A DNA stretch of 64,000 nucleotides from Escherichia phage NHEP1. This document shows positions 19,620 through 64,000 of the stretch, in pieces. The first letter of the stretch is position 1, and the number at the start of each line of letters is the position of its first letter. The stretch is from the sequence record PQ511146.1; one strand, 5' to 3'. The notes under the pieces are model-generated. The model did not search any database. It had not been told where the DNA came from and worked only from the letters and a program-made list of their open reading frames with translations. The translations under genes and the position numbers were made by a program.

Positions 19620-19919
19620 ATGTCTACAACGACAGCTAAATACTCCTATATGCCAGCAACCTCAGCAGAAATAGACTTCAGTTTCGATGTGTTTCCATTG
19701 TTTGAGATAGTCCTGGCATACCCAACAATTCTATCTACTCCTGAATCACTTGTACCTGTTAAGTTGCAGAACGCTATGCATTCCATGCACTACAACAATA
19801 AATGCAGGCACAGATGGTGTCAGGACGAGGAAAAAGATCTGGAGAGTTTGAAAGATTTTGACAGTCACCTTTTGACACCTTTTAGTTACTCAAACCTAGA
19901 CAAGCCTTCATGGGTATAG
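19620..19919 (+). CDS. Hypothetical protein
   Basis: ATG 19620; track start 19608 is GTG. Confidence 0.5.
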   Translation: MSTTTAKYSYMPATSAEIDFSFDVFPLFEIVLAYPTILSTPESLVPVKLQNAMHSMHYNNKCRHRWCQDEEKDLESLKDFDSHLLTPFSYSNLDKPSWV

Positions 19920-19943
19920 CAAAGTATCAAATTTAAGGCACAT

Positions 19944-19970
19944 AGGACGCTCTGTGGCGTCCTTTTCTTT
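19944..19970 (+). terminator. Rho-independent terminator
   Basis: AGGACGC-TCTGT-GGCGTCCT followed by TTTTCTTT. Confidence 0.6.
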
Positions 19971-20547
19971 ATCTGGTGAACGATTCCATACCTTAAGCAG
20001 TTAATATCATTACAGAGCGTTTAAAGGCGGCTTACAAGCAACTCTCTATTTCGAGCGTAGCGAGAACGCACGTCCGTTTTGACCCAAATCACCATACGCT
20101 CGGATTTTAACCAAACCCTCGCGGTGTTTCTGTTGACACATTACCGCTCCTGAAATATGCTTATAGCATCGACACGTTCCAGCCATATGTCGATAAAGTC
20201 TTATTTTTTAAACATGTTGCCGGAATACTCACGGGTGGAACATGACCAACACACATGCATCTACAGAAACATCTGGAGGAGTGAAAGAGGAAAACTTCAA
20301 TTCTGAGGATTCTCTATCTCCGTCCCAGGTGGATCCTGAGGCTGATGACCTAACGTGGGAGGATATCATAGCCATCTGGTTCTCTATTATGCCTGAGCAC
20401 GAAGAGTTCAGAGGTGGGAGACTATAAAGCACCGAGCCCACATAAGTTTATCATGCTAAAGCATGGCCTGAAGAGGCAAACGTGCATAATTCCATCGTAT
20501 TGGAACGTGTAAACCCTGTTCACACTCTCATTTCCAGAGGAGATTCC

Positions 20548-20763
20548 ATGAAAATAGAGATATTTGGTGGGGCTGACAACACTCGTGGCCTGATTTACCT
20601 TGAATTCGATGAATCATACCTGCCAGAGGTGTTAAATATAGATGCTGTTGCGGAAGCCCTTGATGTAGACCCTAAAGATCTCTACTCCCGTGCTGAGATT
20701 GATGGTTGGGAAGAGACTCTGAACATTGATTTCAGTGAAGTAGTAGATGAACCTTTGGACTGA
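20548..20763 (+). CDS. Small acidic hypothetical protein
   Basis: ATG 20548 after GAGGAG; 71 aa. Confidence 0.4.
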   Translation: MKIEIFGGADNTRGLIYLEFDESYLPEVLNIDAVAEALDVDPKDLYSRAEIDGWEETLNIDFSEVVDEPLD

Positions 20764-23270
20764 CACACAAGTCTGCTTTGCAGGTTTAGCTGCTCAGCTA
20801 AGGTTCTGGAGGCACCTATAACATCTTCCAACTAAATTTCCTACCAACACAGTTACTTACCTACCACACATGACTGTTTGCTTGTTTAGTGAGCAGTCAT
20901 CACTTGACATTCTTGCCTATCTTGATAAAATTAAGTTCTTCTCTTTTCTTTTACCGAGTAATTCGGGTTTTCTGTTCTCTTCGGTTTGAAGGGGTATGGA
21001 GATACACCTGAGTGAACAGGGTGAACAACCGAACCTTTAGCTATGGCATTAGCATGGCGAAGCGGACGGGTGACGAAAGAGGGGCCGGAGGACACCAGTC
21101 ACTGCCATATAGTATATGGGTGATAACCTGAAGAGTCTGAATAAGTGTTTAAGTACCAGTCAGAGGAAAAGGTGAATGGTAGCCGAAGGGGGAGGGGGGT
21201 TTCTTATATCTTTAATTTGTATACTTTATATACACTTGTAAACCAATTCAATTAGAATCTGTTTACCACACAAAGGGGATGGAGACAAATATCACCTATT
21301 AAACTTGAATTATTTATAGAAAATACCACAACACCCGTTAAGTCTTTGATTTTACACACAAATCTTACAAATATCCTACCTCCACATTTAACATACTTGT
21401 AACATATTCCATATCCTACCTGCCTGATCAATTTACTCCATCACATTCCCACATTTTCCCTGTCTGTACTACCCCACCCCCGCCGGGAGTCCCGTCATAT
21501 CTGGCTTTCCAGCAAATATCACACCAACAAATATCATCACCTGAAGAGGGTTTCATCCCATAATACCTGCCTTACCTGAAGAGCGCTTCATACACCACGT
21601 AAATTTTTTAATTGACCCCTCCCCGCCGCCAGAGAGGTTGGCTTTTCCCACACAGGCCTGAAGAGTCAGCCAGAAATATCTGAACAGGCAGTTATGTCCC
21701 GATTTTGTGCTTGTCCTACAGGAGTGCTGCCAGGCGGACGGAATGGGAATACTTCTCATTCTTATAATAATTCTCAAATATCGAGGCAGTGAGGCAAATT
21801 AATAGGCCAGGCCGTTCACACAGTGGCACAACATTTGCAATCTATCTTGTGTGGATGAATGAGAATACCTATCATTGTGAGAATGGTTATCATTACGGGC
21901 AATTTAACATAATACCCATTATGCGCACCACTGGCGATACATACAGGGATTGATAACATGGGTTACTGTTTACGCATATAACAATTATATTTCTTACTAT
22001 TTGTGTGGGATATAGTTAGCAACCAATAGATTAGATATTGACCTGCAGACTTCTGACCGTCCAGACGTCTAAACGCCCACACAACAAGGATTATACATAC
22101 ACTCCTGCATGTAACCAGGGCCGCAAAAATGCTACCATACCAGTTTGTAAATTTTTCATGCAGCACTTGACAAAGAGGAGAAAAACTTGTCTGACACAAT
22201 GTGACAATTTTGTCACTTTTGACACTTTTACCTTTGACACAATATGACACAATAACGGCTGTTACTATTCCATATCTCACTGTTTACGCCTGAATAGTTT
22301 ACGCAAAAACTGTTTACACAGAGATGATAAGCCATGCCATTCGTTTGCATGAAAACAATTAACAAGATAACAATTGACAAGCTAACAGCCAACAAGCTGA
22401 CAGTTAATAAGTTAATAAGTTATGACATAATATAAAAGCAGGGCAACTATTAGAAGATCTATAGTTGCCTTGCTTGTTATGTCATGATTAACTAAATACA
22501 AGGCAACTATGATCTGAATAATAGATTGCAGACAAACTATCACGGGGGTGATTGTTACTGCTTTTATATTATGTCGCGACTCCGTCGCGCCATGCCATTC
22601 GTTTGCATAGTTGCCTTATTGTTACAGGTAAAACAATTACATTATTAATTATTTCTTATCTTTCTCTTAGTCATCTAATGATTCCAGTCAGTATAGTAAT
22701 GTACAGTAAACATTAGACGACTAAATATTTCTCTGTGTATAATAACTTATCGTGACAATTTCGAACTGTTTACGAAAAATGTTGACACCTGAGCTGATTT
22801 ATGTTATGCAGTTTACACGAATAATTATTTTATGCAGGTATTGACTATTCCGTTATTCTGTGGTTGGAATAAATACTTTGCAGACTATAGAATGGCGTGC
22901 GTACGTGAATTCTGAGATCTGGCGGCTATAGTTATACTCGATTTTTCGCGTAGAACACGCTTTCGATGCTGTGTAAGTGTATGACTTATAAAGATTTTTA
23001 GTTGTTGACAAGATATTGGAGATGTGCATCAGGTTAAAATTTGTGCAATAGCGGCATTACGTGCACTTTTGGGAGAGAAAACGGGTAAAAATGGCCCTGC
23101 TACCACACAATGAAAGATTATGCAATAGTTATTTTCCATGTATATTTGTACAGTATGTGGGATTGATGGCTAGTCAATTATTCCACTTGCCAGGTAGGGC
23201 CGTTTATGGTAGGAGAAGAGCAGACAAAAAGAAAGGGGCCTTTAAGCCCCTTGATAATTCAGTTAAGAAA
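20764..23270. repeat. ORF-poor, repeat-dense non-coding zone at the convergence of plus and minus transcription blocks
   Basis: No convincing ORF of 100 aa or more; at least five short repeat families seen (see findings). Confidence 0.6.
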
Positions 23271-56722: not shown

Positions 56723-57219
56723 TTATTGCGCTCCTTGTAGTAGATATGACTCCCGAATTGAGCTGTCCTCTGCATCTTTTTTGCCCATTTCGGTCGTACT
56801 TTTGTTGTATGGTAGTGTGTTGCTCCGCCTGTTATATCCATAGCCATGTATGCAACATGGTTGTTATTATAGACCTTTAGAAGCATCTTTGCAAGACTTT
56901 TAGCGTGATCCCATGAATCTTTTTCTGTCACCTTAAAAGTTTTGCCGTGGTTTGTCCACGAAAACTGGTTAGGTTGGTAGACAATCTTTCTTATAGTGTC
57001 TGGGTATTTGGGGTGAGATTTCCTGTTTAGTGTGGCAAACCCAGATGCCAGCATACCCATCGTGCCATCCCCTCTAGCCTCCCTGTAGATATTGCATGCC
57101 AGAATGTTTTCCTTAGTATCCGACGGCTTGCAGGTGTGATATACTTTTTGTTTTGGTGCTGCAACAACAGGCAGCGATAAAAATGCGCTCAAAATAATAG
57201 CAAAGATCTTAGTTTTCAC
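56719..57219 (-). CDS. Secreted cell-wall hydrolase, SleB/CwlJ (Hydrolase_2) family
   Basis: N-terminal signal-peptide-like segment; NIYREARGDG...ATLNR...IVYQPNQFSW motif. Confidence 0.75.
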   Translation of the reverse strand: MKTKIFAIILSAFLSLPVVAAPKQKVYHTCKPSDTKENILACNIYREARGDGTMGMLASGFATLNRKSHPKYPDTIRKIVYQPNQFSWTNHGKTFKVTEKDSWDHAKSLAKMLLKVYNNNHVAYMAMDITGGATHYHTTKVRPKWAKKMQRTAQFGSHIYYKERNK

Positions 57220-57224
57220 AATAG

Positions 57225-57250
57225 CTCCAAATAGAAAATCCCCGCCGAAG
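57225..57250 (-). terminator. Terminator hairpin (minus strand)
   Basis: Minus strand CCCCGCTTCGGCGGGG followed by ATTTTCTATTT. Confidence 0.5.
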
Positions 57251-57268
57251 CGGGGTGTGTCTTAGAAA

Positions 57269-57649
57269 TTAATCGTAGTGTGCCAAAATCTCTCCATCGT
57301 TGCAAGTCCCCTCTACGAAGTTGTGAAGATTCATGCATTCATCTTGATAGAAGAATTTACCGCTTTTCAGCCGTAGACCAAACAACTCCGCATCTCCACG
57401 ATGGCAAGCCTCTACAAGTTCATAGATTTCATACGGTAACTCTCCATCGTCATGGAAGAACCCCGCTTTATCGTTGACATAGATGAAGAAATAGTCACTG
57501 CTGTCGCAAGCGTCCAGTATTTTAAACCAGATTTCATCCACATCTTTTTCTCGGATATCGATCACACAAGTGGAGCTGCATTCGTACTCCTTCTCCGGCT
57601 CCTCGGTCAATACCACCAAGTAGTTTCCCCGCTTACCTACTTTAGCCAT
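57269..57649 (-). CDS. Hypothetical Cys-containing acidic protein
   Basis: Track ORF 126 aa. Confidence 0.5.
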   Translation of the reverse strand: MAKVGKRGNYLVVLTEEPEKEYECSSTCVIDIREKDVDEIWFKILDACDSSDYFFIYVNDKAGFFHDDGELPYEIYELVEACHRGDAELFGLRLKSGKFFYQDECMNLHNFVEGTCNDGEILAHYD

Positions 57650-57658
57650 ACAACCTCC

Positions 57659-58843
57659 TCAAGCTTTAGCTAAAATGGCGCTAAACTCTTCACCAAACTC
57701 TTTTACAATCTTCATCAGGTTTGGGTATGCTTTGATCAGCTGAGCGACGATCTTGTCCCTGCCTTTACCAATAAGTAAGGCATTTCCTAAGGCGTTAGGT
57801 TTCATCATCGCCATAAAGACTGAGAATACAAAGTCTCGGTTCTCATCCTTGAAATTTTCCCAAAGGAAATCAAGGAAGTTTGCCACACAGCTGACAAGAT
57901 CTTCGTCGGAGATACTTGCATTTTCCATCATATTACGAATAGCGATACAACCTTCTGACCCCAGAATCCACAAGATGTCTGGCTGCTTAGGACCTACATA
58001 TTCTTTGCAGCCTCCTGCCATAATCCGACCGATTTCTGGCAAGTTTCGTTTCTTGGTGTGGTAGGTCCAAATTTCTACCGCTGCAGTGTGACCAATTGCA
58101 CCTTGTAGAAGGACACGGGCCATAGCGTCAGAAATAATACCGCTGTCAAAATCGTGCAGGATGTCAGATGCAGCAACCCAAGATCGCGGTGTGGCAAAAG
58201 ATGGACAATTAATCTCAGCCATGGCCTCATAATTATCAATGGCTGATGGGACTCTTTTCAGATATCCAATTACAGAGGAGTGCACCCCATTAAGGAATGC
58301 ATAGTCCTCAATAAACACCTCTGCACTGCTTGTAACTTCTACAATGATAAAGCGGTTAGCTAGAGGAGCTTCGAGCGCCGAAAGAACAGCACCGTCTGTA
58401 GCACGGTTACCTGCAGCTACAAAAACAGAGCCCTTAGGAAATGCATAGGTGCCGCACTTGTGGTCGAGCATAATTTGCATTGCAACCTTCTGCAGGTAGT
58501 TATCTGCATGAGTAAGCTCGTCTAGAAAGATAATTCCGCTCCAGTCCGGATCTGCAGGCCAAAATTCTGGAATTGCAAACACTGTACGTGTAGTCCCATC
58601 CGACTCTACAGGGATAGGTAGCCCAGATAAGTCAGCAGGGTCTTTATCTGACAGTCGCACGTCAACAAGGTTGTCATCTCGCTCACCGAACATATTATCA
58701 GCGATCTGCTTCATCACCTGACTTTTACCCACACCCATTGGTCCCAAAATTAGGACAGATCGGCTATGACGTTGGGCAAACTGAATAATGGCTGGCAACT
58801 CACGGACAGTGATTTGACCACTTTCGAATACGTTTCTTGACAT
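57659..58843 (-). CDS. MoxR-like AAA+ ATPase
   Basis: Walker A GPMGVGKS; Walker B IIFLDELTHA; about 390 aa. Confidence 0.8.
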   Translation of the reverse strand: MSRNVFESGQITVRELPAIIQFAQRHSRSVLILGPMGVGKSQVMKQIADNMFGERDDNLVDVRLSDKDPADLSGLPIPVESDGTTRTVFAIPEFWPADPDWSGIIFLDELTHADNYLQKVAMQIMLDHKCGTYAFPKGSVFVAAGNRATDGAVLSALEAPLANRFIIVEVTSSAEVFIEDYAFLNGVHSSVIGYLKRVPSAIDNYEAMAEINCPSFATPRSWVAASDILHDFDSGIISDAMARVLLQGAIGHTAAVEIWTYHTKKRNLPEIGRIMAGGCKEYVGPKQPDILWILGSEGCIAIRNMMENASISDEDLVSCVANFLDFLWENFKDENRDFVFSVFMAMMKPNALGNALLIGKGRDKIVAQLIKAYPNLMKIVKEFGEEFSAILAKA

Positions 58844-59145
58844 TAGTAAAAGTCCTCTACTTGTGTGTAAGTGTTTTCAAAGTTTTCCAAAACAGATGTC
58901 ACATCGGATCTGTCAATATCGTACACAACTTCCCAGTTGTATGCAACCCTTTCTGCTGTTGCTTCTTCGGGACTTAACCGCCTACTGGGGTGAAAGAATG
59001 TTGGAGTGCACTTTCTTAGCTGTTTCCCGATTTTCCCATAACAATACCTGTGGATAATTTTGTCAAAATTTAACTCTTTTTCTGCACAAAGTTCATGTTT
59101 CTGGTATAGCATGTTTATTACTCTTTTAAGTGGCCTCCTTGCCAC
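58843..59145 (-). CDS. Hypothetical protein
   Basis: Track ORF 100 aa. Confidence 0.5.
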   Translation of the reverse strand: MARRPLKRVINMLYQKHELCAEKELNFDKIIHRYCYGKIGKQLRKCTPTFFHPSRRLSPEEATAERVAYNWEVVYDIDRSDVTSVLENFENTYTQVEDFY

Positions 59146-59151
59146 TACCTG

Positions 59152-59532
59152 CTAGAATGCAGTTCGAATCCAAACAAGGTTTTTATCTGCCCAATCATAA
59201 AGGCAAGTCATTGCACTGTTGAATTGCTCGCATGGTGGATAATCCTCTTCCATTCGGCGCATACCAGAACCTTGAGGGAAAAGACTCATTGCTGCAAACC
59301 ACGAATCGTAGTCATCCACAGTGTCGAAGTAGTATACAACATCCTCCAATTCAGGGTCGAATTTTAAATTATCAGGATCCAGCAGCTCAGGAAACTTGGC
59401 ACGTAACTTGCCAGCTACGATACTTGCCAGCTCGCTAACATGCTTGTTGTCCCAATCTACCAGTTTCCCGTCTTCATCGATGCGTCCTAGCCACTGTTCA
59501 TGGAGATCAACTGTTGTCTTCCACTGTGCCAT
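59152..59532 (-). CDS. Hypothetical protein
   Basis: Track ORF 126 aa. Confidence 0.5.
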   Translation of the reverse strand: MAQWKTTVDLHEQWLGRIDEDGKLVDWDNKHVSELASIVAGKLRAKFPELLDPDNLKFDPELEDVVYYFDTVDDYDSWFAAMSLFPQGSGMRRMEEDYPPCEQFNSAMTCLYDWADKNLVWIRTAF

Positions 59533-59534
59533 TA

Positions 59535-59792
59535 TCAGTCTACCTCTTCTTCCCGTTGCAGCTCAAGATACCCATAGGTCTGGATATCTTCAAGGGTGTG
59601 AAACTCCCCGTCAGCAGCCAAGGCGCGAACAACTTGGCGCAAAACTTTATGAGGGACTTCATCCAGCCCTAGATTCAGTGCAGGAAACACCTTATCTAAG
59701 TCAACAAAATAAACGAACTGTAGTTCACCAGCTTCAAAAGGTGTATCTTCAATAAACATCTTCTCGGCATTGGTCAAGATCTGCACTTTCAT
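59535..59792 (-). CDS. Hypothetical protein
   Basis: Track ORF 85 aa. Confidence 0.5.
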   Translation of the reverse strand: MKVQILTNAEKMFIEDTPFEAGELQFVYFVDLDKVFPALNLGLDEVPHKVLRQVVRALAADGEFHTLEDIQTYGYLELQREEEVD

Positions 59793-60148
59793 TATTCTAC
59801 CCCCTCTTCTTTTTCTTCAGCATTAGTTTCAGTGCTACCCCACTCTGGAGTTTCCACCTCGATAGTAAACTCACGCACTACACGGTAATTGCCCATGAAG
59901 CGCTCCACTTCTTCAAGGCTTATGGAGAGGCCATTGGCAACCAAGTCTGCAGCACCCTTCTCTACCAGGTAGTCCAGATTGGCTTCCAAGGCTTCAGGCT
60001 CAAACCCTGTCAATGCAATCATATAACCTTCCCCTTCATCAGGGAGGGCAATACAGCCCAACTGATTTTCTTTAAAAAAGCAGTGACCATCATTATTGAT
60101 TGGGTGCTCATTGCAGTAAATAGCTGCACGATAAGTAACTTTAGACAT
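59792..60148 (-). CDS. Hypothetical protein
   Basis: Track ORF 118 aa. Confidence 0.5.
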   Translation of the reverse strand: MSKVTYRAAIYCNEHPINNDGHCFFKENQLGCIALPDEGEGYMIALTGFEPEALEANLDYLVEKGAADLVANGLSISLEEVERFMGNYRVVREFTIEVETPEWGSTETNAEEKEEGVE

Positions 60149-60160
60149 TGATAGGCCTCC

Positions 60161-60439
60161 TTAGGCAACTGTCATTTTACATTCTTTGAATTTTAGCACA
60201 AGACGGTGATTGTGTCTAGTGTCTAAAAAGATTTTTTCAACCATCAGGCACACGGTGTAACCGTCCATCTTATTGACAACAAAATCTCCAGGGTAAGGGA
60301 GAATGTCACCTGGACTGGGGAAACATAGCCCACTCAAGAAGGCATCGTCGGTGGTGGATTTAATGGATTTCCACACACTGTCTGCCTGAATATTTTCACC
60401 CACATAATATACACTACCACATGCCTTCATCATAGTCAA
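60161..60439 (-). CDS. Hypothetical protein
   Basis: Track ORF 92 aa. Confidence 0.5.
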   Translation of the reverse strand: MTMMKACGSVYYVGENIQADSVWKSIKSTTDDAFLSGLCFPSPGDILPYPGDFVVNKMDGYTVCLMVEKIFLDTRHNHRLVLKFKECKMTVA

Positions 60440-61335
60440 ATCTCCGCGTAAATTAAACTGGAATCAGTATACTTCTTTAGTGGGTAAATATCCTGTCCAT
60501 AGATGCCGTCATTAAACACCTCATCTACCCAAAGGCTACACTTATATCCCATCATCTCTAAAACACCCATCTCTTCTTCGGTAAACTTATCACCGCTCTT
60601 GCAAGATGTCAATACCTCATTCTGTACTCTTGCCACCTCGAAGCGGTTATTGGCAATATCGCTATTAGCGATCAAATACTCACCCAAAGGGTGTGCGGCA
60701 TTAAAGATGCACAGTGGACGGTTGACGTAATAGTCTCCAGGTGTATAAAAATTATTGAGGTCTTTCACTAGAACATTCTTATCAGTCACTTCATTCATAA
60801 CATCATGCATATCGCACATCTTTATATGTTTGAGGATTCCATCCCCCATCACAAAATAAAAACTTGCTGAAACACTTTCGGCATAGATCTTACTAGATCC
60901 GTTGTAGTTGTATTTTACTCGGATGCTAACGGGGGTTTTTCCTGTCGCGTTAGCCATCATCCAAAGAAATGGCAGCTCATACTTCTCCTCTGAGGAAACA
61001 AAAGGTGAAGTTGCCAGAGATCGGAAACCTCCAGAGAAGTTGAAAGTTACAGAACCGCTCCGGCGGTATGATACTGCGTATTCCACTTTTATATCAACAT
61101 ATCCGTTGGAGTAAGTATGCCCTCCATTATCAAGGTATGTCCACTTATCGGACCCAGATACCAACCTCCGCTCAATTACCTTCATCACTACAGGGATTAG
61201 CGGATTAGTACAAACCGATTTTGAAGTAGCTTTATCATCCAAAGCCTCGTAAATTGCAGAAAGGATATCACCTGCTGAGAGATTGGTTGTGATATCTTGT
61301 TTCCACCTGGTGCTAAAACTGTTAAGATTTGCCAT
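60436..61335 (-). CDS. Hypothetical protein
   Basis: Track ORF 299 aa; first gene of the minus-strand block. Confidence 0.55.
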   Translation of the reverse strand: MANLNSFSTRWKQDITTNLSAGDILSAIYEALDDKATSKSVCTNPLIPVVMKVIERRLVSGSDKWTYLDNGGHTYSNGYVDIKVEYAVSYRRSGSVTFNFSGGFRSLATSPFVSSEEKYELPFLWMMANATGKTPVSIRVKYNYNGSSKIYAESVSASFYFVMGDGILKHIKMCDMHDVMNEVTDKNVLVKDLNNFYTPGDYYVNRPLCIFNAAHPLGEYLIANSDIANNRFEVARVQNEVLTSCKSGDKFTEEEMGVLEMMGYKCSLWVDEVFNDGIYGQDIYPLKKYTDSSLIYAEI

Positions 61336-61375
61336 GAGTAAGTGCTCCTATGTTAGTTTTCTTTTGAATGGGTGC

Positions 61376-61446
61376 ACTATATCGTGGATTTAGAGTAAAG
61401 TCAACACGTTTTTCAGGTTGACATCTTCTCAGGCACTTGGTAAGAT
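61376..61446. promoter_or_regulatory. Divergent sigma70-like promoter pair
   Basis: Plus: TTGACA (61418-61423)-N17-TAAGAT (61441-61446); minus: TTGACT (plus 61399-61404)-N17-TATAGT (plus 61376-61381). Confidence 0.5.
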
Positions 61447-61477
61447 TTCTCCACCCACAGAGAACAAGAGACAACTC

Positions 61478-62467
61478 ATGAATCTTGAAAAATATTATAC
61501 ACCAGAAGAGTTAGAGCGCTTGCTCAAAAAATACAGACGCAAACAGAATAACGCACGGAAACGGGATATAGAGTTCAACCTGTCATGGGAAGAATATCTC
61601 CTATTTGGTAAAAAACTTTTAGGAGAGGGAGTATGCGACTATACCCTTATACCTTTCGACATGCACACAGATGAAAACGGACTGGGAAATCCTTTCTACC
61701 CATCTCTGGAGCGGATAGATGATGAAGGTCCTTATGCGGTTGACAATTGTTGTGTGGTGGGATTGAGATGCAACTCCCTAAAGGACTGCCTGGTAGATAA
61801 AAAGACCGCAGTCTTGATTAAAGACAAAACTGATCGAAAAATTGTCCAGCAGATGATGCTCCACCTGAGCGAAGAGCGTATGGAGAAATTGAAAGGTGAT
61901 TACACTTTTGAAGATTTCATCTTGCAATATGGAACGGAAGAGGATAAACTAGCACTCTTTGACGAAGAATGGGAGGAAGATATGTCACCGATGCAGGATT
62001 TTAAAAACTTCATGGCTAATCGTGGAGCCAACAAGCACATTTCTGACATTGTAAACGAGCCTGTAGTAGAGGAGATTGGAGAGATGACGCAACAGGCTTA
62101 CGAAGAGGAAAAAGAGCCTCAAGTGGTCGAAGAAGAGCTTACAGAAGAGGTTCCTGCACTGCCTGACGATGTTGAGATTGCCAAAGCTTACACTTTCTAT
62201 TGCCAGACGTTCTACGATGCAGGTATGAAAGTTGATCTGTCATTCAGCCAGTTTAAGAGCACATACATTCGAAAATGTTGTGCTTTAACTGGTGAACGTC
62301 TCGGTGCCGGACTTAAACCCCTATTAGTTACCGACTGGAACAAAGGTTTCACCAAAGGTAACTTCATGGTAGTATCTCCAATCATGGAGAAGGCTATGAC
62401 AGACCTTATGAAGACCACTCGCATGACAATGACCGAGTTGGCTGGTATTTTCAAGCACGTTAAATAA
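61478..62467 (+). CDS. Hypothetical protein
   Basis: ATG 61478 (MNLEKYY); the longer track ORF begins at a TTG that is the promoter -35. Confidence 0.55.
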   Translation: MNLEKYYTPEELERLLKKYRRKQNNARKRDIEFNLSWEEYLLFGKKLLGEGVCDYTLIPFDMHTDENGLGNPFYPSLERIDDEGPYAVDNCCVVGLRCNSLKDCLVDKKTAVLIKDKTDRKIVQQMMLHLSEERMEKLKGDYTFEDFILQYGTEEDKLALFDEEWEEDMSPMQDFKNFMANRGANKHISDIVNEPVVEEIGEMTQQAYEEEKEPQVVEEELTEEVPALPDDVEIAKAYTFYCQTFYDAGMKVDLSFSQFKSTYIRKCCALTGERLGAGLKPLLVTDWNKGFTKGNFMVVSPIMEKAMTDLMKTTRMTMTELAGIFKHVK

Positions 62468-62500
62468 TGACAGGGGCCATTGGCCCCTTCTGGAGTTTTA

Positions 62501-63961
62501 ATGGATAGCAGAAGTTCAGAAATCATTACCGCACAAAAAGATGATGCCTTGCGAATGCTGCAGGCCGCTCGCATGTACCTTCTTGAAAAGCTGCCGTTTT
62601 ATGGCACACTGTTGTCAGGGTTGCAGTTCGTAGAAAACCACACATGGTGCTCCACTATGGCAACAGACCATAAACGCATCTACTACAGCCCTGAGTTCAT
62701 TATGGGGTTGGCAGATGAGCGTAAAACCATTCTTAAAGCATCTCTGACTGACAAGCAGTTTGAGATGGCTGAAGTTTTCTATTCCCCAAAATCTGTGAAA
62801 GAGGTGGCCTTTCTTCTGTCACATGAGGTGGGGCATATTATCTGTGATCATCTGGTCCGTGGTAAAAGCTTTGAGCCGGAACTGTTCAATATTGCTTGTG
62901 ATCACGTTATCAACACAGGTCTTGTGGTTGACTTTAGCAAGCCTCCTTGTGTTTTCTTCCCGAAGGGGAAAAGCACTGAGTTCGTAAAAGGTAAGCCTTT
63001 TGGCTTCTTAGCTAATTGCTACTGCGACATGAAGTTTCATGGATGGATTGCGGAGAACGTCTATGCAGTTCTTGATAAACAAAGAGATCAGAATGGCGGT
63101 AAAAGTAAGAACGGTAAAGGTGAGAACTCCCAAGGAGATAAACGACAAACCGATGATCACATGAGCGGGAACGGTGGCACTAGTGATGATCTTGGAAAGG
63201 CTATGGGGTATGATCAGCCGCAACCAGTAATCAGTCAATCGGATAAAGATCAGGCCATGCAGGACTCTGGTGACATGTTGGAAGCAGCAATGCAAGCTTC
63301 AGGAGGTCGTTGCCCCGAGGCGGTGCGCGAGTTTGTCAAAAACAGAGGCAAGCCTGTAATCAATTATATAGATATTATTAAGCAACGTATGTTATCTAAA
63401 AGAAAGGCTGAGTTAACCTACAGAAAACCTGGTCGCCGATCTGGGTCTTTGACCACCACAATGCGAAAAGTTGGAGCTATAAACAAGAATCAACACGTTA
63501 TTGTTCCTGGTCGTAATCCGGAAAACACTATAGATATTGTAGTGGCTTTAGACGTTTCTGGGTCGATCTCACAAAGAACTTTAAAGAAAATGTTCAATGA
63601 GATCACCGGGTTGTGCAATTTGTATAAAGAGTTTAAGGTTACGATGTTCTGTTGGTCAACCGAGGTTGGAGAGGTTAAAGTATACACTCGCGGTAACATC
63701 GATGAGATGATCAACTATGAGGTCCACTCAACATGGGGCACAACAGCCGCCTGCGTGTTCGAGTATCTTGATGCTAACATACCGAATGCAAAAGATGTCA
63801 TCGTCCTTACCGACCTCTACTTTGAGCATAACTTTGAACAAAAGGCTGTTGACAACAAGTGGAAAAAGTACGATACTTTATGGGTTCTCACCGAAGGGTA
63901 TAATAAAAATTATATCCCGAGCTTTGGGAAAACTGTGGAATTAATCGAGTACGCTAAGTAA
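62501..63961 (+). CDS. VWA-domain protein with N-terminal HExxH metallopeptidase-like motif
   Basis: HEVGHIICDH and MIDAS-like DVSGS motifs; ATG 62501 after GGGGCC/GGCCCC hairpin. Confidence 0.7.
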   Translation: MDSRSSEIITAQKDDALRMLQAARMYLLEKLPFYGTLLSGLQFVENHTWCSTMATDHKRIYYSPEFIMGLADERKTILKASLTDKQFEMAEVFYSPKSVKEVAFLLSHEVGHIICDHLVRGKSFEPELFNIACDHVINTGLVVDFSKPPCVFFPKGKSTEFVKGKPFGFLANCYCDMKFHGWIAENVYAVLDKQRDQNGGKSKNGKGENSQGDKRQTDDHMSGNGGTSDDLGKAMGYDQPQPVISQSDKDQAMQDSGDMLEAAMQASGGRCPEAVREFVKNRGKPVINYIDIIKQRMLSKRKAELTYRKPGRRSGSLTTTMRKVGAINKNQHVIVPGRNPENTIDIVVALDVSGSISQRTLKKMFNEITGLCNLYKEFKVTMFCWSTEVGEVKVYTRGNIDEMINYEVHSTWGTTAACVFEYLDANIPNAKDVIVLTDLYFEHNFEQKAVDNKWKKYDTLWVLTEGYNKNYIPSFGKTVELIEYAK

Positions 63962-63976
63962 GAGAGGATGGTATTT

Positions 63977-64000
63977 ATGGCAACAGAGGTAGTAATTAAA
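63977..64000 (+). CDS. Start of a further plus-strand gene (truncated by window end)
   Basis: AGAGAGGA RBS then ATG; only 8 codons visible. Confidence 0.3.

Follow-up and report, generated by a model that had tools for sequence, protein, structure and literature searches.

A MoxR-type ATPase and a DUF2201 HExxH/VWA protein of Escherichia phage NHEP1 as a split counterpart of the N4 gp24/gp25 pair

The window analyzed here is a stretch of 64,000 nucleotides (nt) from Escherichia phage NHEP1 (sequence record PQ511146.1). [quoted passage not shown] The two proteins are homologs of N4 gp24 and gp25, respectively. An earlier reading of the window (referred to below as the original prediction) had proposed that these separated genes encode partners of the MoxR-VWA type, and comparative analysis strongly supports this proposal: the two families show near-obligate linkage and an apparent ancestral adjacency, each is present in single copy in a completely sequenced close relative, and the ATPase model is NorQ/CbbQ-like. 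Based on these sequence comparisons, we conclude that the two genes probably constitute a cognate module that was split in an ancestor of Vequintavirus/Seunavirus-type phages. The pair is of a known type, represented by N4 gp24/gp25 and by the MoxR-vWA pair with an N-terminal metallopeptidase that Iyer et al. 2021 (Viruses 13:63, PMC7824862) described computationally for group 2.2 jumbo phages. Because the genes are already annotated in public records and this type of pair had been described, the pair in the window is not a new idea. The new points are modest, namely, that the Vequintavirus module is split and divergently transcribed and that a free-standing version of the cassette occurs in bacterial chromosomes.

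Results

Genomic linkage of the ATPase and DUF2201 families

In NHEP1, the two genes are separated by 3,658 nt and lie on opposite strands, in agreement with the 3.6 kb given in the original prediction. We examined 50 loci seeded mostly with the VWA protein, which were drawn from viral contigs encoding it and from public records of phages and metagenomic contigs. In the pattern-based locus searches, alignments A2 and A3 took the place of A1 and A5, whose divergence was too great. At 49 of the 50 loci, an ATPase homolog was located no more than 10 kb from the DUF2201 gene. The split arrangement, with the ATPase gene 3.5 to 5.3 kb away on the opposite strand, was found in relatives at 39 to 100% identity, comprising Vequintavirus, PVP-SE1-like, 4MG-like, and Klebsiella phages (loci L001 to L021, L025, L051, and L052). 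At all 29 loci outside this clade, the ATPase gene is positioned directly upstream of the DUF2201 gene on the same strand. Such adjacent pairs occur in Certrevirus, which belongs to the same subfamily, in N4 and N4-like phages, in the jumbo phages RaK2 and phAPEC6, in many uncultured phages, and in a 578-kb megaphage contig.

In the reciprocal search, 70 of 80 ATPase-seeded viral loci carried a DUF2201 gene, which was adjacent and co-directional in 68 of the 70; a single abundant clade accounts for the majority of the loci, which are thus not independent events. The remaining 10 loci end before a partner gene could fit, and no counterexample was found. In one of these 10, from an uncultured phage, the usual DUF2201 position directly behind the ATPase gene is taken by an inserted ORF of 340 aa (L086, 2961 to 3983) whose CxxxCxxC motif is radical-SAM-like, and the contig ends right behind this ORF.

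The pair also occurs in bacteria. A bacterial contig of 1.25 Mb carries an AAA_3/AAA_5 ATPase gene followed by a DUF2201 gene in a non-phage context, and both genes are present at 49 of 80 Campylobacterota loci. The DUF2201 family as a whole comprises approximately 25,600 representatives at 50% identity (E ≤ 1e-3).

Several further observations connect the two families. The identities of both proteins co-vary across loci (Spearman coefficient, 0.91), and their host-genus distributions in INPHARED are parallel (625 records for the VWA protein versus 812 for the ATPase). One completely sequenced close relative encodes a single member of each family, and neither its annotation nor searches of it revealed a further VWA or MoxR gene. 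Throughout the split lineages, the ATPase gene has kept its position upstream of rIIA, rIIB, and a helicase gene, in the same order as in N4, and the slot that it occupies elsewhere in front of the DUF2201 gene is filled by an Srd-like gene.

Sequence motifs and predicted structure of the ATPase

The ATPase was assigned to phrog_1297 (“ATPase,” E = 4e-110). In line with the original prediction, the open reading frame (ORF) is present and all AAA+ motifs, which are encoded on the minus strand, are intact. These are Walker A (GPMGVGKS, residues 34 to 41, 58721 to 58744), in which G37, G39, K40, and S41 are invariant in alignment A3; Walker B (IIFLDE, residues 104 to 109, 58517 to 58534; D108 and E109 invariant); the invariant sensor 1 (AGNR, residues 144 to 147, 58403 to 58414); the arginine-finger motif (PLANRF, residues 160 to 165, 58349 to 58366; N163 and R164 invariant); and the sensor 2 motif (ATPRSW, residues 217 to 222, 58178 to 58195; P219 and R220 invariant). 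This catalytic set is complete and invariant in 35 homologs, down to 30% identity.

The structural model of the ATPase (predicted local distance difference test [pLDDT] score, 80.9) consists of an AAA+ core and a C-terminal helical domain of about 110 residues. Residues 64 to 90 form the β-hairpin region of the helix-2 insert (58574 to 58654), with predicted strands at 76 to 81 and 84 to 89 placed between β2 and β3 and with conserved D71..G74. The insert motif RLSDKxPxDxxG is conserved across ATPase homologs, while the geometry of the insert is uncertain because its pLDDT is low. According to the secondary structure of the model, a pre-sensor-1 β-hairpin (residues 127 to 138, 58430 to 58465; G131 and P136 invariant) is short, covering approximately residues 128 to 137, and precedes β4. 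The C-terminal extension (residues 280 to 394, 57662 to 58006; model helices from 288 to 393) is specific to the family, and L302, F323, and N330 within it are nearly invariant among homologs.

When the model was searched with Foldseek, ranks 1 to 17 were taken by NorQ and CbbQ2 (E = 2e-8 to 2e-6; target-normalized TM of about 0.6), with the NorQ alignment spanning only approximately 270 residues of the ATPase. The matches also included cso-CbbQ and the MoxR protein CHU_0153, and ClpC, McrB, dynein, and others ranked after NorQ/CbbQ. A direct sequence search of the PDB returned only P-loop-level matches to ClpB/ClpC. At the level of the family, ATPase homologs at 31 to 36% identity match the MoxR-type Pfam models AAA_3 (PF07726) and AAA_5 (PF07728). 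As judged from the model, the ATPase appears to be of the MoxR type and most resembles NorQ and CbbQ.

Sequence motifs and predicted structure of the DUF2201 protein

The partner protein was assigned to phrog_1314 (E = 5e-123). As had been anticipated for an HExxH protein with a MIDAS-type VWA domain, the ORF is present and both DUF2201 Pfam domains score above their cutoffs: DUF2201_N (PF13203, “putative metallopeptidase domain”) with E = 1e-28 and 101.1 bits versus a cutoff of 23.2, and, C-terminal to it, DUF2201 (PF09967, “VWA-like”) with E = 4e-11 and 43.7 bits versus 26.4. Its model (pLDDT, 79) shows a confident helical N-terminal domain (residues 1 to 199), a disordered linker (200 to 228), a second helical region, a basic segment, and a minimal VWA domain.

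The putative zinc site lies in the sequence HEVGHIICDH (62822 to 62851), which contains the HExxH motif (HEVGH, residues 108 to 112) and H117. Among 27 homologs, down to 25% identity, H108 and H112 are invariant, the catalytic E109 is found in 26, and H117 is conserved in at least 90%. A second conserved motif of the peptidase-like domain, NIACDHVIN (62888 to 62914), contains the invariant residues N130, A132, D134, and N138. From this conservation, H117 and D134 are candidate zinc ligands. Further Pfam matches to the N-terminal domain, namely, Peptidase_M48, SprT-like, and DUF5700, were all weak, and those to M48 and SprT-like were centered on the HExxH helix.

The N-terminal domain is followed by a low-complexity linker (residues 196 to 232, 63086 to 63196; pLDDT below 50 at 200 to 228) whose length differs among homologs. 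A conserved basic segment precedes the VWA domain (residues 309 to 340, 63425 to 63520); its residues R312, T318, R322, G325, Q331, and P336 are invariant or nearly so in alignment A2, and its pLDDT is partly low. The VWA domain itself (residues 344 to 486, about 143 aa, 63530 to 63958) contains the MIDAS motif DxSxS (DVSGS, 63551 to 63565; D351, S353, and S355), which is completed by T414 (63740 to 63742) and D438 (63812 to 63814). All five MIDAS residues are invariant in alignments A1 and A4 and in the 27 homologs down to 25% identity.

The coding sequence is preceded by a GC-rich hairpin (62472 to 62488) and a GGAG Shine-Dalgarno sequence (62491 to 62494). An in-frame TTG at 62480 was considered as an alternative start codon, but this is unlikely because GGAG is placed 6 nt ahead of the ATG at 62501, which is also the start codon given in public records.

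Some public records label the DUF2201 gene as an “HNH endonuclease” or an “anti-sigma factor.” We regard both labels as misannotations; Pfam gave no HNH signal. PHROG 1314, the DUF2201 metallopeptidase and VWA family, carries the HNH label, which has spread to the RefSeq records of N4, RaK2, PVP-SE1, and FV3; mislabeled members include the gene in the window, N4 gp25 (L047, 2165 to 3307), and RaK2 ORF054 (L045, 3971 to 5356). The “anti-sigma factor” label in some Vequintavirus records was apparently copied from the neighboring gene.

Arrangement of the locus in NHEP1 and its relatives

The strand-switch region between the two genes (61336 to 61477) contains back-to-back σ70-like promoters, as predicted from the sequence. 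The minus-strand promoter reads TTGACT-17-TATAGT (61404 to 61376), and the plus-strand promoter reads TTGACA-17-TAAGAT with an extended TG (61418 to 61446); each agrees with the consensus at 10 of 12 positions. The −35 and extended −10 elements of the plus-strand promoter are kept in the L005 lineage, in which the proteins are only 62% identical. The divergent promoter of the original prediction is thus represented by this predicted pair at 61376 to 61446, but neither of the two genes abuts it. The ATPase gene is the ninth gene of the leftward unit, with eight ORFs between it and the promoter, and the VWA gene comes second in the rightward unit.

The first gene of the rightward unit (61478 to 62467) is an Srd-like “anti-sigma”/EndoVII-like gene (phrog_3118), with weaker matches to the Srd and σ70-decoy families. 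This gene is always located directly upstream of the DUF2201 gene in split lineages and is absent wherever the pair is adjacent, and the splitting of the pair and the acquisition of the Srd-like gene seem to have been one event. Other neighbors of the pair are rIIA/rIIB and the helicase gene, whereas the structural module is far away and has its own prohead protease.

Within the leftward unit, a small minus-strand ORF (58843 to 59145; 89 to 100 aa, phrog_13164) terminates at a stop codon overlapping the start codon of the ATPase gene (TAATG) and is conserved only among Vequintavirus-level close relatives. phrog_13164 is labeled “ATPase,” probably by association, because the protein has only about 90 aa and no P-loop. 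A 299-aa ORF on the same strand (60436 to 61335) carries the public label “putative alpha 1-3 fucosyltransferase,” which looks unsupported because the ORF has no Pfam or NCBIfam match and belongs to a PHROG of unknown function. Past the ATPase gene and a 126-aa ORF, a terminator-like minus-strand hairpin (57240 to 57255; CCCCGCTTCGGCGGGG followed by a T-rich tail) closes the unit.

The region from 57000 to 64000 shares 93 to 97% nucleotide identity with over 100 Vequintavirus genomes (rV5-like E. coli myophages); near-identical relatives include S127 BCL3, B9-1, FV3, and the BASEL phage EmilHeitz (Bas49). Records of close relatives already label the two genes “MoxR ATPase” and [quoted passage not shown] Sixteen GenBank “Campylobacter phage” records (MG0656xx; host, C. 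jejuni), including A142, A141, A140, A13b, A147, A135, A12a, and C2, match the same region at 93 to 98% identity, and it looks as though either their host label is wrong or the isolates are coliphage contaminants. Elsewhere in the window, at approximately 19900 to 21300, the coding strand switches at the cumulative GC-skew maximum near 20 kb. None of the ORFs there exceeds about 90 aa, no tRNA was found, and the counterpart in the EmilHeitz record (approximately 94.6 to 97.1 kb) carries no annotation.

Discussion

Relationship to known MoxR-VWA systems

Among the closest known counterparts of the NHEP1 pair are the N4 proteins. N4 gp24 is 27% identical to the ATPase (E = 1e-28) and gp25 is 22% identical to the partner (E = 9e-21), both over the full length. 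In N4, gp24 (labeled “unknown” or a putative AAA ATPase) and gp25 (“vWFA domain”) are middle genes (PMC4193335, PMC2784036), and both belong to the set of 14 core genes that defines the core of the N4-like phages (Schitoviridae; PMC4193335). The pairs share the same domain architecture, and in both genomes rIIA, rIIB, and the helicase gene are positioned downstream of the ATPase gene. They differ in arrangement, not in gene content: the N4 genes are adjacent and co-directional, whereas those of NHEP1 are 3.66 kb apart on opposite strands. In addition, the NHEP1 ATPase has a larger C-terminal extension, and the peptidase-like domain and linkers of its partner are approximately 100 residues longer.

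The jumbo-phage pairs belong to the same two families, and the RaK2 and phAPEC6 members, which are annotated as N4 gp24/gp25-like, are matched by the NHEP1 proteins. However, the jumbo-phage genes are adjacent and located beside virion genes, and a role in virion assembly has been proposed for them, while NHEP1 is a 137-kb myophage in which the pair is split and found in an early-type region.

Among cellular systems, NorQ/NorD and CbbQ/CbbO appear to share with the NHEP1 pair a ring ATPase with a conserved helix-2 insert and a VWA protein with a MIDAS, a flexible linker, and an N-terminal domain. Sequence identity to the NHEP1 proteins is only 15 to 22%, NorQ and CbbQ lack the C-terminal helical domain of about 110 residues, and NorD and CbbO lack the HExxH motif present in the N-terminal domain of the phage protein. 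The VWA domain also differs in size, with about 143 aa in the phage protein and about 300 aa in NorD, and the pore finger is a feature of NorD. E. coli RavA/ViaA resembles the pair in that a MoxR ATPase and a VWA cofactor act on specific client complexes. RavA was absent from the listed top structural matches of the NHEP1 ATPase; it has a LARA domain and binds LdcI, and ViaA has no peptidase-like domain. The p618 (MoxR) and p892 (VWA) proteins of Acidianus two-tailed virus are the only virus-encoded MoxR-VWA pair with experimental data, which concern tail development (PMC7824862, PMC9964418). This pair belongs to an archaeal virus and is devoid of a peptidase domain. PADLOC gave only P-loop-level matches for the ATPase (E > 0.002) and none for the partner, and NCBIfam gave nothing meaningful; we therefore do not consider the pair to be a known defense system.

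A working model and the evidence that weighs against it

We favor the reading that the two proteins are a cognate pair, the split Vequintavirus version of N4 gp24/gp25, that works in a NorQD-like manner on a client, perhaps a cytoplasmic one met before virion assembly, and we put the probability of this reading at roughly 0.55. During the rearrangement that split the pair, the ATPase gene would have stayed with the rIIA-rIIB-helicase block, and the VWA gene would have come to lie behind the Srd-like gene on the other strand. By homology to NorQ/NorD and CbbQ/CbbO, the ATPase may form a MoxR-type hexamer. In NorQD, a finger of the VWA domain is bound in the pore of the ring and touches the helix-2 inserts, the MIDAS contacts the target, and upon ATP hydrolysis the linker leading to an N-terminal specificity domain is twisted and stretched (PMC13036017, PMC9976466). 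Taking this system as a template, one copy of the NHEP1 partner would dock through its VWA domain on the ATPase ring, touching the conserved helix-2 inserts, and a VWA finger would plug the pore of the ring. The MIDAS would bind an acidic residue of the client rather than the ATPase. ATP-driven motion would then twist or stretch the flexible linkers to the N-terminal domain, which would clip or grip the client; the conserved HExxH motif of this domain hints at cleavage of the client or, failing that, at its being held by a metal site.

With less certainty, the client would be a cytoplasmic host protein or a nonstructural phage protein that is handled before virion assembly, and not the capsid. 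Action at this stage is suggested by the host-type promoters, by the fact that the N4 homologs are middle genes, and by the bacterial copies, which have no virion genes nearby. The megaphage pair (L049, 1592 to 8591, in the 578-kb contig) is found among HSP20, ClpS, and ClpP genes, a proteostasis-flavored neighborhood that would fit a cytoplasmic client. A third gene conserved with the pair could hint at the target, and clustering of the neighbors of the 80 Campylobacterota loci yielded none beyond the pair. Linkage of ThyA and a 5′-3′ exonuclease to the pair is confined to a single abundant clade of uncultured phages, and the conservation of the small ORFs that flank the ATPase gene in the window does not extend beyond close relatives.

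Several findings weigh against this reading. First, the linkage has exceptions. Locus L011 has the Srd-like and DUF2201 genes and no ATPase gene within 10 kb, and megablast found no cultured relative of it. Lineage L215, which may be its counterpart, has the ATPase gene and no DUF2201 gene within 10 kb. At least one lineage either has over 10 kb between the two genes or has lost one of them. A Sulfurovum clade also carries the ATPase without DUF2201, and the ATPase family can therefore take other partners. We conclude from these exceptions that the linkage is very strong yet not absolute. The Sulfurovum loci (L165, 4559 to 6948, on the Sulfurovum sp. CS9 chromosome NZ_CP180410, together with 18 similar Campylobacterota loci) contain an overlapping 462-aa ORF upstream of the gp24-like ATPase gene. 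This ORF has no Pfam match and may be an alternative partner of the ATPase; hhalign showed no likeness to DUF2201.

Second, the NHEP1 ATPase falls under every Pfam AAA cutoff (AAA_5, 16.9 bits versus 22; bpMoxR, 15.5 versus 27), whereas the DUF2201-linked bacterial ATPase exceeds both (35.8 versus 22 and 35 versus 27). Third, no match of the partner's N-terminal domain to any solved peptidase appeared in the fold-search lists, which VWA matches filled. A direct sequence search of the PDB with the partner returned nothing, and a profile search gave only weak matches to integrin MIDAS domains. The name “peptidase” is thus owed only to the HExxH motif and the Pfam family name. Fourth, the literature contained no experimental demonstration of interaction, ATPase activity, or proteolysis for any family member, and a search for experimental studies of N4 gp24/gp25 or of the Vequintavirus genes found none; genome-wide CRISPRi-ART screens covered T4, T5, SUSP1, and PTXU04 and neither N4 nor an rV5-like phage. 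Finally, the jumbo-phage pairs adjoin virion genes, and the phAPEC6 ATPase has been found in virion preparations, both of which favor a role in assembly.

Alternative explanations

The most serious alternative, although in our view an unlikely one, retains the partnership and assigns it to virion morphogenesis, with the pair acting as a chaperone while a part of the tail or head is assembled and with a structural protein being processed by the zincin domain. Iyer et al. 2021 proposed such a role for the jumbo phages by analogy with Acidianus two-tailed virus p618/p892 (PMC7824862). Consistent with this idea, the RaK2 and phAPEC6 pairs lie directly downstream of virion and head-completion genes, and in one Vequintavirus-related lineage the ATPase gene sits behind baseplate and tail-fiber-assembly genes. 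The core set of N4-like phages that holds the pair otherwise consists of replication, transcription, and structural functions. In addition, six peptides of gp265c, the phAPEC6 ATPase homolog, were detected by mass spectrometry in purified virions (PMC7247149). However, its partner gp264c (the pair is encoded at L214, 5944 to 8768) was not listed in the virion proteome, while the thymidylate synthase gp259c was detected, which suggests carry-over of cytoplasmic proteins. The middle rather than late class of N4 gp24 and gp25 also argues against a morphogenetic role, as does the placement of the NHEP1 genes in units with host-type promoters, beside rIIA/rIIB, the helicase gene, and the Srd-like gene and far from the structural module, which already has a prohead protease of its own. 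The bacterial chromosomal copies in non-phage contexts point in the same direction. With modest confidence, we therefore rank an early or middle cytoplasmic client above a morphogenetic role.

It is considerably less probable that the pair is a nonproteolytic maturation factor, similar to NorQD, CbbQO, or CobST, in which the HExxH motif binds a metal or the client and which serves cofactor insertion or enzyme reactivation, for example, in nucleotide metabolism. The closest solved ATPases, NorQ and CbbQ, do serve metal insertion and enzyme reactivation, and the pair recurs near pyrimidine-metabolism genes: in N4 and G7C-like phages, these encode dCTP deaminase and ThyX; in RaK2 and phAPEC6, thymidylate synthase; and in the abundant uncultured clade, ThyA. 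This association, however, is a matter of synteny in a few clades and is seen neither in the window nor in the divergent viral loci, nor is it seen in bacteria, where no third gene is conserved with the pair; moreover, retention of the catalytic glutamate of HExxH in 26 of 27 homologs argues for catalysis.

That the two proteins act independently in NHEP1, with the strand separation reflecting functional uncoupling and the ATPase serving another client or partner, would fit the different transcription units, the Sulfurovum clade, and the apparent distance of more than 10 kb in one lineage, but it is the least probable alternative, as every split lineage, from 39% to 100% identity, has retained both genes as intact single copies with all of their catalytic and MIDAS residues, the divergence of one protein parallels that of the other, and the genome has no alternative VWA or MoxR gene.

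Implications

In Vequintavirus, the pair has stayed intact and has co-evolved after being split into two divergent units, and adjacency in an operon is therefore not needed. The split also allows each gene to be knocked down separately without polar effects. For finding the target, the E. coli K-12 phages of the genus (e.g., EmilHeitz, Bas49) and N4 are tractable systems. The finding itself is modest, and the module would gain in interest if its client were found. Its reach is considerable: the DUF2201 family is present in at least 625 sequenced phage genomes, and the module supplies two of the N4-like core genes.

A bolder and doubtful version of the reading is that the gp24/gp25-type module is an ATP-gated metalloprotease that remodels and cuts a conserved host protein early or midway in infection, for takeover of the host or for counter-defense. 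If this were true, the module would represent a core host-directed function common to N4-like podophages, rV5-like myophages, and jumbo phages, while in bacteria, for instance Campylobacterota, the same cassette would serve a client of the cell's own.

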